From assembly GCA_946555455.1 (NCBI GenBank), contig CAMNSU010000003.1, positions 900 through 64,899 on the forward strand: a stretch of DNA of 64,000 bases, written 5' to 3'. Under the pieces are notes generated by a model. That model was not told the DNA's origin. It made no database searches and saw nothing but the letters and a program-made list of their open reading frames with translations. Source of the stretch: an uncultured Clostridia bacterium (GTDB lineage: Bacteria > Bacillota > Clostridia > RUG12999). Below are positions 33,042 to 40,706 of this stretch, one piece after another; position 1 is the first letter of the stretch, and the number at the start of each line of letters is the position of its first letter. The position numbers were made by a program, and so were the translations under genes.

Positions 33042-36000
33042 ATGAAACGACATGCAAAGCGTTTTTGTGGAATACTTTTGCTCATGACAATGCTGCTGGC
33101 AATGATTCCGGCAGGATTTGCCGCCGCAGCAGGAGTTGCTGTGCCAACAGTTGATGTTGCGCCGGGACTCTATCGGGAGACCAAACAGATTTCGCTGTCG
33201 GCAGCGGCAGGTGCAACGATTTATTATTCCACAGACAATAAAATGCCGGACGAGACCTGCACGGAATATACAGGCCCCATCACGGTGAGTGAAACCACAA
33301 ACATTTGTGCCATTGCAGTGGCAGACGGTGTGAAAAGTGACCCTGTCACGTTTACATACATCATCAAAGGCGCGGAGGAACCGATTTTTCAATTTGTGGC
33401 AATGAGCGACATTCACATCGGCGACAGAACAAAAGACGCGCCGCGTATCAAAAAAGCGTTTGACGTGATTCAGTCCATCTTTCCGGAGCCGGACGCGATT
33501 GTTCATGTGGGCGACCAAATCAACGACAACCACGTAGCCCATCCAAATCAGTATCCGGATCGCAGCGCAGACCATCAGATTGTGGTTGATATGCTGCAAA
33601 AAGAACTGCAAGACCGCAGTCTGACAGACAAAACAGATATCAGCATGGTCATGGGCAACCACGATTCAACGGTAAGCAACATGCAGAAATATTATCCGGA
33701 AGATTGGTATCCAACCTCCGGCCCGGGCTACTATCACAAAGTGATTGACGGCTACGATTTTCTGTTTTTGAATACAGAAAATCATTCAGATGCACAAAAA
33801 AATTGGTTGAGTGAACAGTTGCTGGCGATTACCAACAACAAAACAGAGATGAATAAGCCTATTTTTGTGGCGGGGCACCGACCGCTTCCGAATACAGTTT
33901 TGGACGGACAGCAAGCGACGCTCTCCACATATAATGCGATATTGAATGAATATCCGCAAGTAATTGCGTTTTCGGGGCATTCGCATTTGGATATGAATGA
34001 TGAAAAATCCATTCATCAGAAAAACTATACTTCTTTGAATACAGGTTCCATGAGTTATATTGAAATTGACCGTGGTAACAATTTCCAGATGCACACAGAT
34101 AGAGGGCAGATAGTATCCTATGAAATTCCTGTCACGCAGTGCTATTTTGTGGAAGTTTTTGCAGACCGTGTGGAATTTGACCGCGTGGCAGTGAATGCAG
34201 ATAGGGGAGACGCCAAAACAAACGGTTATATTCCGGCGGAGCCGTTCAACAACACCGGCGTATCCATTGGGGAACGCTGGACAGTGGACATGACGGGCGA
34301 CATTAAAAGCAATTTTAGATATACGGCGGAAAAGAGAACAGGCAGCGCGCCGACTTTTGCGGCGGATGCAAAAGTGACGGCGAAAATGGAAGGCGGCAAA
34401 GCGCTGGTGGCATTCTCTCAGGCGGAGGACGTGCAGAAGCTGCGCTACTATGAGATTGCCATGCGCGACGCATCGGGAAACGACGTCAAATCCATGAAGG
34501 TACTGCCGGAACACTATTTCTCTCCGGTACCGCGTACCTTAACCTATGAATTTACGGATATTCCGCAGCTTGGCGGCAGTTATACCTTTAGCGTCCGCGG
34601 CGTGGATACCTTTGGCAACCGCTCGGAAGCGATTGTTACGGAAGAAGCAATAACCGCGCCGAAACTGCCGGGCATTCTGCCGACTTATCTGGTGAACGAA
34701 ACATTCACCACAGAACCGACAGACGCGGCGACACACGCAATTCCCTTTGTGAATTTATGGGGAACGCCTAAAGGTTCGGGAGAAATGCAGTATACAGACG
34801 GTACGGCGAATTTGGTGAACACAGGGACAAACGGAAATTTTGATTTGACAATACCGCTCATGCCAGGAAACGGAGATTTTGAGACAGAACCTATTCCCGA
34901 CAGCACGCCGACAGGACCTTTGATGGTGGAATGGGAATGGAAAGACGCAACGGGCGGCGGAAATGAAATGCAAGCATATTTCCGCAATGCAGCAAAACAA
35001 AACACATTTGTTGTACGTGCTACATCAGGTGGCTATAATTGTCGTTTTATCAATGCAAGTAACGGTTCGGGTAGTAACTGGGGCAGTTCTTCGGCGGCAG
35101 GTTCCAATACTATGACCAAAGTGCGGGTGCTGCTGAATAACACAGGAAGCGCAGCTTATGTAGATGGTGTGTGGCTGAATGGAACACGCATTGTCAATGA
35201 ACGTCAGACGTTTCTCAGAGATGTTGGAACAGGATTTTCACAAATTTGTTTTAGTCATAAAACAAATGGTTCAAACGGACAAACAGCCCTTATCATAGAC
35301 AATTTCAAGGTATGGGTGCCGGCAGCTTCACAAGCAACTGCATTAGCGAAAGAAGACGGCGCGGCGATTACCTTTGACGATATCAAAGGCGCCAACGAAG
35401 CGGCGGATAATATCACAGCAAACTTGGCGCTGGCGGCAAAAACAGAAACAGAAAACGGTTTGATTGTCACAGGCTGGAAATCCAGCAATACGAGTGTCAT
35501 TGCGGCGGACGGAACCGTAACACGTCCCGGATTTGGTGAAACAGATGCGGAAGTGACATTAACGCCGCTGCTGGGCGTACTGGATTTTGAAAACGAAACA
35601 GAAGGCAACTATGCCACGGCAGAAGGAACGCCCATCACTGTAACGGTGAAAACCACCGACACCACCGGCGGCATTCGTCCGGAGGACGTGAACGGCGTTG
35701 GATATTATGTCAACGAAACCTATGACGAGAAACCGACCGACAAGACAACACATTCCATTCCGATGATTGGTACATGGAGCGGCGGCACGGCAGAATGGAC
35801 TGTGGAAGATGGAAAACTGGCGATGGTACCGACGTCAACCGGTTATAATTTCAATATACAAATCCCCTTCATGCCGGGAGAAATGAAAGAAAATGTCGTG
35901 CCGAAGGGCAAGGTATATATTGATTTTAAATGGCAACATGGTGCAAATGAAACACAGACCGACCTTTATGTGCAGGGGTATGCAAGCAATCTTGTGAAGT

Positions 36001-40706: not shown

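Follow-up and report, generated by a model that had tools for sequence, protein, structure and literature searches.

Gene and module organization

The stretch of DNA analyzed here (hereafter the window) comprises 64,000 nt of contig CAMNSU010000003.1 from an uncultured Clostridia bacterium of gut type (GenBank assembly GCA_946555455.1), and the gene under study is an ATG-start open reading frame (ORF) at 33042-40706 on the + strand, stop codon included, that encodes a genuine cell-surface protein of 2554 aa. The protein joins an apparently active metallophosphoesterase (MPE) head to a long stalk of Ig-like and lectin-like modules and to a predicted cell-wall anchor of S-layer homology (SLH) domains. 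All nucleotide coordinates below are those of the window unless another contig is named, all aa numbers are those of the 2554-aa protein, and all of its modules lie on the + strand.

Pfam searches of the protein retrieved CHB_HEX_C_1, Metallophos, seven aBig_2 domains, F5_F8_type_C, and three SLH domains, and the remaining modules were delimited with local hidden Markov models (HMMs) or from the translation. A putative Sec-type signal peptide (MKRHAKRFCGILLLMTMLLAMIPAGFAAA), recognized by eye from the translation, occupies aa 1-29 (33042-33128), and is followed by a CHB_HEX_C_1/Fn3_assoc beta-sandwich at aa 40-102 (33159-33347; PF13290, E 8.7e-13; PF13287, E 1.6e-10), the predicted binuclear MPE catalytic domain at aa ~117-420 (33390-34301), and an FN3-like domain at aa ~430-540 (34329-34661). 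The stalk then begins with the first of four modules of an undescribed family, here called U, which are predicted concanavalin A (ConA)-like jelly rolls. By local HMM, U1 spans aa 544-773 (34671-35360), U2 aa 883-1111 (35688-36374), U3 aa 1215-1441 (36684-37364), and U4 aa 1572-1797 (37755-38432). Between them lie the Ig-like domains aBig_2 #1 at aa 776-879 (35367-35678; PF20578, with borders by local HMM), #2 at aa 1112-1217 (36375-36692), and #3 at aa 1444-1543 (37371-37670), the latter two placed by local HMM. Behind U4 stand aBig_2 #4, #5, and #6 in tandem at aa 1797-1898, 1904-2000, and 2008-2100 (38430-39341; Pfam and local HMM), a predicted F5/8 type C (discoidin) domain at aa 2110-2213 (39369-39680; PF00754, E 1.5e-15; PF22633, E 2.6e-12), and a divergent aBig_2 #7 at aa ~2250-2321 (39789-40004; PF20578, E 4.2e-8 when the segment was scanned alone). 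The aBig_2 family as a whole matches these seven stretches with E 5.9e-76. A Gly/Ser-rich linker read from the translation (aa ~2325-2355; 40014-40106) leads to the three SLH domains at aa 2378-2554, which with the stop codon fill 40173-40706 (PF00395, E 3.8e-34). The tandem SLH triplet, together with the N-terminal hydrophobic signal sequence, marks the product as a probable SLH-anchored surface protein, more than 75% of which consists of non-catalytic modules per Pfam.

An earlier sequence-only reading of this DNA had proposed the 2554-aa ORF and much of this domain order, and the ORF call, Pfam, and local HMMs bear it out, including its count of about seven Ig-like modules. Two details need amendment. 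The Pro/Thr-rich linker that it had placed after all of these modules exists, but sits between aBig_2 #3 and U4 (aa 1538-1572; 37653-37757, read from the translation, with period-6 short tandem repeats at 37669-37697 and 37727-37741). The ending NY.KTWQ that it had given to every lectin-like module is found, as [DN]Y.KTWQ, in U2-U4, but U1 ends in DNFKVWV.

The metallophosphoesterase head

Metallophos (PF00149) matches aa 117-315 above its cutoff (E 2.2e-13). Within this region and its surroundings lie the motifs DIHIGD (aa 123), GDQ (aa 157), GNHD (aa 205), GHRP (aa 278, motif IV), and GHSH (aa 312), which supply the metal ligands D123, H125, D158, N206, H279, H313, and H315 as well as a predicted catalytic His, H207, in GNHD. 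In an alignment of 17 homologues, the seven ligands and the catalytic His that these five motifs supply show little or no variation. The motifs DIHIGD, GDQ, GNHD, and GHSH, on which, without GHRP, the identification of a phosphoesterase was originally based, are thus all present, and an N-terminal domain lacking metal ligands, which would have told against it, is not what we found. The AlphaFold model of aa 29-548 has a mean predicted local distance difference test (pLDDT) of 79 and a predicted template modeling score (pTM) of 0.82, and its predicted fold is the alpha/beta sandwich of MPEs, with extra loops after motif V that are predicted at low confidence.

A single-sequence search of the PDB with the head retrieved no match. 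In a family-profile search of the PDB, the nearest solved structures were Rv0805 (E 2e-13) and GpdQ (E 4e-10), at ~17-19% identity, and Mre11/SbcD nucleases were also detectable (E ~1e-6). The Tyr of purple acid phosphatase (PAP) motif II (GDxxY) is absent from the head, which reads GDQIND at this position, and Pfam found neither Pur_ac_phosph_N (PF16656) nor the 5_nucleotid_C domain of UshA/CpdB/YfkN-type proteins in the 2554-aa protein. In sequence and fold, the head is therefore nearest to the Rv0805/GpdQ/PAP group and not to the UshA/CpdB nucleotidases. Since its ligands are conserved, its nearest solved relatives are Rv0805 and GpdQ, and it has neither the PAP Tyr motif nor 5_nucleotid_C, the head is apparently an active phosphoesterase of an uncharacterized subfamily, closest to phosphodiesterase-type members.

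The U modules

The sequence-only reading had described four LamG-like lectin modules. Their number and fold type stand, as four modules of ~225 aa predicted to be ConA-like, whereas membership of a Pfam LamG family does not. No Pfam family (E up to 10) or NCBIfam family matched the U modules above threshold. The best Pfam match was to Laminin_G_3 (PF13385), for U1 only, with E 0.09 and 13 bits vs. a cutoff of 27.6, and U2-U4 gave nothing against this model. A profile search of the PDB with the U profile (A1) retrieved no match, and hhalign of this profile against the Laminin_G_3 region of the homologue P0094 returned an insignificant probability of 2%. U2-U4 are 27-34% identical to U1, and between U3 and U4 the identity rises to 49%. 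The predicted structure of the U module is all-beta (pTM 0.69, pLDDT 61) and shows the curved two-sheet beta-jelly roll of the ConA-like lectin/glucanase fold.

To our reading, the conservation pattern of the family speaks to its role. In PL7 enzymes, the catalytic residues are Arg, Gln, His, and Tyr, and GH16 enzymes carry ExDxxE. Across 34 aligned U modules, the positions conserved at 85% or above are Pro, Gly, Trp, and one Glu, and neither a conserved His/Arg/Tyr set nor a PL7- or GH16-type catalytic set was found. On this residue conservation, which centers on structural residues (Pro, Gly, and Trp), we reject catalysis of the PL7 or GH16 kind, and the U modules are more likely binding or spacer modules than enzymes.

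A word-index homology search with U retrieved one fragment, and an exhaustive HMMER scan of 1.84 billion representative proteins retrieved 23 U-bearing proteins. The family is very rare, and nearly all of its members are relatives of the 2554-aa protein.

A recurrent head architecture in distant homologues

The sequence-only reading had called the architecture unusual. The combination is less singular than it looked, its core being recurrent in other bacteria, among them Paenibacillus and further Firmicutes. The homologues P0099, P0101, and P0105 show the order MPE-fn3-Laminin_G_3, the same as MPE-FN3-U1 here, and in P0094, which has no match to the fn3 model, the same head likewise precedes a Laminin_G_3 domain in the position of U1. 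Because Laminin_G_3 follows MPE-FN3 in these relatives, U1 is positionally equivalent to a LamG domain. Such relatives often carry discoidin or dockerin domains, and versions with BACON or DUF1080-type (3-keto-disaccharide hydrolase) domains exist. Judging by these domain matches, conservation of MPE-FN3-LamG as a head unit extends to several phyla.

Fused, split, and docked relatives

We would like to note that the patterns used for the search of genome contigs fell within CHB_HEX_C, and 79 of the 80 loci retrieved share that domain only. The exception is the locus L010 from an uncultured Ructibacterium sp. (Oscillospiraceae), which holds the sole full-length relative in the species-representative genomes searched. 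L010 is syntenic with the window, its encoded proteins being 70-74% (permeases), 65% (solute-binding protein), 34-37% (giant protein), 46% (902-aa SLH protein), and 60% (CBM96/heparinase-like protein) identical to their counterparts. The giant protein is there encoded by two genes. Gene A encodes 1220 aa with a signal peptide, CHB_HEX_C, MPE, Ig, U, aBig_2, a second U, and a C-terminal domain of ~100 aa that we call X, without SLH, and is followed by a TAA stop, a hairpin, and a ~110-nt spacer. Gene B has its own signal peptide (MSRLKQGISLLL...) and encodes three U modules and five aBig_2 along with one discoidin domain and an SLH triplet.

The same division is seen in database relatives. Among the U-bearing proteins of sufficient length for classification, P0034, P0036, P0037, and P0050 are of the MPE-bearing A type, and P0033, P0035, and P0046 are of the B type (U, aBig_2, F5/8C, and SLH, without MPE). 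P0038, P0040, and P0045 also lack the MPE, and U and aBig_2 are the only modules detected in them; P0041 has U and a cohesin-like stretch, and P0044 combines U with cohesin, CBM_X2, and SLH. X-type and SLH-type C-termini are mutually exclusive among these relatives. The X domain (L010 13247-13564) ends in ..K.FVW(D/E/N)....P..., has no Pfam match, and is C-terminal on P0034, P0036, P0037, P0041-P0043, P0045, and P0050, i.e., only on family members without SLH, which makes a role in docking or in another mode of anchoring possible.

Both X and an internal signal peptide are missing from the 2554-aa protein, and no remnant of X was found in any frame of the window. On this evidence, we take the protein to be a natural fusion of two units, a secreted enzyme and a lectin scaffold with an SLH anchor, for which Ructibacterium and several database relatives have separate genes. 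The alignments of A-type relatives reach as far as aa ~1100-1209, those of B-type relatives start at aa ~888-1337, and the junction of enzyme and scaffold lies somewhere within aa ~880-1215. The fusion point cannot be placed more exactly because the orthology of the U modules is too eroded (25-33% identity).

A protein from Paenibacillus sp. FJAT-27812 has a head 43% identical to that of the window protein, followed by Laminin_G_3, discoidin, cohesin, and dockerin domains. On contig L093 (10001-14716), the gene for the Paenibacillus MPE-LamG-discoidin-cohesin-dockerin protein is followed by one for a 346-aa cohesin+SLH protein, a pair that resembles two-gene anchoring in the style of cellulosomes for a phosphoesterase outside a glycan locus. 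This arrangement looks like a third way of placing the same enzyme on the S-layer.

L010 also encodes a 966-aa protein (5163-8063, equal to P0041) with U, the cohesin-like stretch, a dockerin-like sequence (DLNGDGVIGAGD), and an X-type C-terminus. Its sub-threshold matches are to Phosphodiest (E 0.003), Sulfatase (E 0.004), and phosphonate monoester hydrolase (E 0.07), and no homologue of its non-U part was found in the window.

Integrity of the ORF

The internal near-repeats at the DNA level had raised the concern that the gene is prone to misassembly. Such repeats exist, but as families of only 63-80% identity over 59-108 nt, the longest exact repeat is 19 nt, too short for assembly collapse, and there are no tandem arrays in the gene beyond the Pro/Thr linker. 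The same 2554-aa ORF is present on two Logan contigs assembled independently from two other sequencing runs. One of them, L005, is 100% identical to window 28963-42969, and the other, L004, differs by 10 mismatches and one gap over 14 kb (99.92% identity) and thus comes from a different strain. Although the ORF is on these contigs, the exact 2554-aa protein has no indexed product in the database; an NCBI metagenome-assembled genome labeled 'Clostridia bacterium' contains proteins neighboring the giant gene in the window. The concern over misassembly is not upheld. The idea that the ORF is a chimera of adjacent enzyme and scaffold genes joined through repeated modules, to which the repetition of its modules and the two genes with the same modules in L010 (the only related genome for which the locus context is available) lend some plausibility, is rejected as highly improbable given the weak repeats, the same ORF in both Logan assemblies, and the absence of an A-type C-terminal domain remnant or a second signal peptide from all frames of the window.

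The surrounding operon

Directly upstream of the giant gene, two ATP-binding cassette (ABC) permeases of sugar type and a 542-aa lipoprotein solute-binding protein (SBP) are encoded at 29283-32969 (+; BPD_transp_1; lipobox LAAC). Downstream follow genes for a 902-aa secreted protein with N-terminal SLH, a conserved partner (40786-43494, +), a 1283-aa protein with CBM96, a heparinase II/III-like (lyase-type) domain, and SLH (43526-47377, +), and a GH29 alpha-L-fucosidase and a GxDLY/GDSL esterase (47438-49996, +), all per Pfam. Divergently oriented at 24674-28828 (-) are a GH123-like glycosidase and a 757-aa AraC-type (HTH_18) regulator, also per Pfam. With a regulator, an ABC sugar importer, a lipoprotein SBP, and predicted glycan-active enzymes, the region is recognizable as a Gram-positive polysaccharide-utilization locus (PUL), and the Pfam matches of the neighbors agree in this with the sequence-only reading. 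The operon order is kept in L010 at 34-74% identity, with the addition of an upstream GH95-like gene. SLH is the sole match of the 902-aa protein in Pfam, NCBIfam, and PDB, and this protein may be an unrecognized glycan-active enzyme or an S-layer component.

Megablast of L004 against the window upstream of 28914 (window ~6.6-28.9 kb) gave no match, and since L004 diverges there, the GH123-like gene and the AraC-type regulator are strain-variable. Upstream of the permease operon, L004 1-4957 instead encodes S30AE, patatin, tRNA_edit, and a 744-aa Cu_amine_oxidN1 protein. In the strain-variable region of the window, there is also a GH88-like (unsaturated glucuronyl hydrolase-type) gene (13925-15043, -), which would suit the processing of products of the CBM96/heparinase-like lyase.

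A structured repeat of ~125 nt occurs in two copies of the same orientation in the window (17003-17134 and 28914-29043, +) and at L004 4958-5087. The window copies each precede a + strand gene (MatE and the ABC permease operon) by 170-240 nt, and the second stands exactly at the end of the colinearity of the window and L004. Its RNA fold has a z-score of -6.2, the first hairpin is kept in L004 via compensatory changes, no Rfam family corresponds to it, and only one match was retrieved in JGI metagenome contigs. An Rfam scan of the window returned nothing, and a promoter/terminator scan gave results not above shuffled controls. A GC-rich hairpin of 13 bp without a T-run lies between the SBP and giant genes (32986-33017) and a similar one 3' of the giant gene (~40715-40747); these may be intra-operon processing, stability, or attenuation elements.

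Farther downstream, polyphosphate kinase (ppk) and Ppx/GppA phosphatase (ppx) genes are found at 52091-55539 (+), 2-5 kb from the glycan locus, with a pair of ABC-2 transporter genes of opposite orientation in between. A connection of ppk and ppx with the phosphoesterase is possible but unsupported.

Interpretation of function

The reading we favor, and to which we give an even chance, is that the protein is a surface phosphodiesterase acting on a phosphorylated glycan that contains fucose and uronate, on which it is held by its lectin stalk. The C-terminal SLH triplet would fasten the protein to a cell-wall polymer, while the stalk of seven aBig_2 spacers, four ConA/LamG-like U modules, and one discoidin domain would hold the N-terminal head off the wall and bind polymeric glycan multivalently. 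The head, i.e., CHB_HEX_C-MPE-FN3-LamG-like, would be a binuclear MPE of the Rv0805/GpdQ/PAP-like branch and most likely cleaves phosphodiester (or phosphomonoester) groups in or on the glycan. The neighboring lyase, fucosidase, esterase, and GH123-like enzyme could then complete the breakdown, and the adjacent ABC transporter would import the products. The activities suggested in the sequence-only reading, i.e., stripping phosphate or sulfate-like esters from a complex glycan or serving as a nuclease/nucleotidase, are still plausible.

We favor this reading because the operon encodes permeases, SBP, 902-aa SLH protein, CBM96/heparinase-like protein, GH29, and esterase in an order that is kept in Ructibacterium, and because the metal ligands of the head are intact across 17 homologues. 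The ConA-like fold of the U modules and their near confinement to relatives of this protein, the recurring MPE-FN3-Laminin_G_3 order, and the other modes of anchoring in Ructibacterium and Paenibacillus count in its favor as well. It is also suggested by the U-bearing protein of the Ructibacterium locus with its weak matches to the alkaline phosphatase superfamily (of nucleotide pyrophosphatase/phosphodiesterase (NPP)- or sulfatase-like kind), and by a distant Tannerella homologue that sits among glycoside hydrolase genes (GH39, GH106, GH88, and GH127).

Several points weigh against it. The enzyme set of the locus names no candidate phosphorylated glycan, the U model is only moderately confident (pLDDT 61), and no ligand site was identified in it. 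The closest solved relatives of the head are <20% identical, so its fold gives no substrate specificity, and our literature search turned up no characterized member of the MPE subfamily, hence none with measured activity, nor any account of a Gram-positive PUL that includes an MPE. The homologues from Streptomyces, Microbacterium, Paenibacillus, Bacillus, and Victivallaceae lie outside glycan loci, which makes the PUL link lineage-specific, and the contexts of the distant homologues P0003, P0011, P0019, P0015, and P0096 are uninformative or point elsewhere. The Bacteroidetes metagenome contig L092 (2795-8644) carries a tandem row of three MPE genes, of which one is PAP-like and the other two are distantly related to the head domain, and such a cluster looks more like phosphate scavenging.

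The latter observation belongs to the alternative that we take most seriously, although we doubt it, namely that the protein is a general surface phosphodiesterase or nuclease for scavenging phosphate or nucleosides. Its targets would be extracellular DNA or RNA, cyclic or linear nucleotides, glycerophosphodiesters, or teichoic-acid debris, and the lectin stalk would merely keep the enzyme in the polysaccharide matrix or on neighboring cells. The nearest solved relatives do act on small phosphodiesters, nucleotides, and glycerophosphodiesters, and Mre11/SbcD nucleases are within the reach of the head profile. Standalone actinobacterial homologues occur outside glycan loci, the homologue of Bacillus songklensis adjoins RNase T-type and RNase J-type genes, and the L092 cluster with its PAP-like gene and the proximity of ppk and ppx fit such a role as well. 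However, the gene lies within a sugar-ABC/lyase/fucosidase operon that is conserved in two genera, fusions of the head with modules of LamG, discoidin, and BACON type are persistent, the 5_nucleotid_C domain of UshA/CpdB-type nucleotidases is missing, and the ABC-2 transporter genes separate ppk and ppx from the locus.

It is less likely still that the protein is mainly an adhesin or scaffold, whose stalk captures glycan or binds host or other cells and whose MPE head is accessory, regulatory, or catalytically irrelevant. The large share of non-catalytic modules would suit this, as would the Ructibacterium scaffold, a separate SLH protein with no enzyme domain, and so would the rapid evolution of the giant protein, which at 34-37% identity has diverged far more than its operon neighbors (46-74%). 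Nevertheless, the seven metal ligands and the catalytic His are kept in every aligned family member, and the MPE-FN3-LamG core is conserved across phyla, which argues for selection on catalysis. An MPE fold doing non-phosphate chemistry, e.g., hydrolyzing sulfate esters on a sulfated fucose/uronate polymer, is very improbable: the locus looks aimed at an anionic fucose/uronate polymer and the window has no recognized sulfatase, but the closest relatives are all phosphoesterases, the sequence holds nothing specific to sulfate, and we know of no carbohydrate sulfatase of MPE fold.

Returning to the glycan-directed phosphodiesterase, a broader version may be put forward tentatively, as a possibility that we would not ourselves bet on. 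The CHB_HEX_C-MPE-FN3-LamG family as a whole could be an unrecognized class of glycan-directed phosphodiesterases working in a surface complex, with U as a new family binding phosphorylated anionic glycans and with three interchangeable routes to the S-layer. These could be covalent fusion to the SLH scaffold (the window), docking through X on a separately encoded SLH lectin scaffold (Ructibacterium), and cohesin-dockerin pairing with a small SLH anchor (Paenibacillus). If so, the fusion in the window would serve as Rosetta-stone evidence for a physical interaction between the A and B proteins in relatives.

Phosphoesterases are rarely counted among the polysaccharide-breakdown enzymes of Gram-positive bacteria. 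If the head cleaves glycan phosphodiesters, it would add an enzyme class to models of glycan utilization, with teichoic-acid-like polymers, capsules, and phosphomannan as candidate substrates, and would offer a handle on gut Clostridia that feed on phosphorylated microbial or dietary polymers. If it is a general phosphate scavenger instead, there would be nothing out of the ordinary about this large surface protein. U is a candidate for a new family of carbohydrate-binding modules, and the fused, split, and cohesin-dockerin variants are a natural experiment on the assembly of surface enzyme complexes.

Comparison with known systems

The class III phosphodiesterases Rv0805, CpdA, and GpdQ are <20% identical to the head, and unlike them, the window protein is extracellular and carries CHB_HEX_C, FN3, and LamG-like appendages and the extra post-motif-V loops of the low-confidence part of the model. 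Purple acid phosphatases likewise combine a beta-sandwich with an MPE domain, but their GDxxY Tyr ligand and a Pur_ac_phosph_N match are missing from the window protein. Much closer are uncharacterized MPE proteins of Paenibacillus, Microbacterium, and Streptomyces (e.g., P0094, P0096, and P0003), whose heads are 36-43% identical and which have the same order CHB_HEX_C-MPE-(FN3)-LamG-discoidin. They differ in being 538-1201 aa long and outside glycan-utilization loci, the jelly roll of P0094 is a recognizable Laminin_G_3 and not a U module, and the fourfold U-aBig_2 stalk and covalent SLH are found in the window protein and in none of this group. The Paenibacillus protein would be wall-tethered if its dockerin binds the neighboring cohesin+SLH protein.

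Closest of all are the split A/B proteins of Ructibacterium and the relatives P0033-P0050, with the same MPE head, U, aBig_2, discoidin, and SLH tail and, in L010, the same operon order. In Ructibacterium, the enzyme (1220 aa, with X and without SLH) and the scaffold are separate, and there is the extra U-bearing NPP/sulfatase-like protein.

Multimodular glycan-degrading enzymes of Gram-positive bacteria that are anchored through SLH have a signal peptide, an outward catalytic module, spacers of carbohydrate-binding module (CBM) or Ig type, and a triplet of SLH domains at the C-terminus. The window protein shares this module plan with them, and its gene stands beside an ABC sugar importer and an AraC-type regulator. 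In contrast to these enzymes, its catalytic module is a phosphoesterase and not a glycoside hydrolase or lyase, and its binding-type modules are of an undescribed family. In its general type, the protein is therefore a known one, namely a multimodular surface enzyme that has an SLH anchor and belongs to a glycan locus of Gram-positive kind, and what is new, and of moderate interest, is the uncharacterized subfamily of its MPE head, the rare and undescribed ConA-like module family, and the series of fused, split, and cohesin-dockerin forms.

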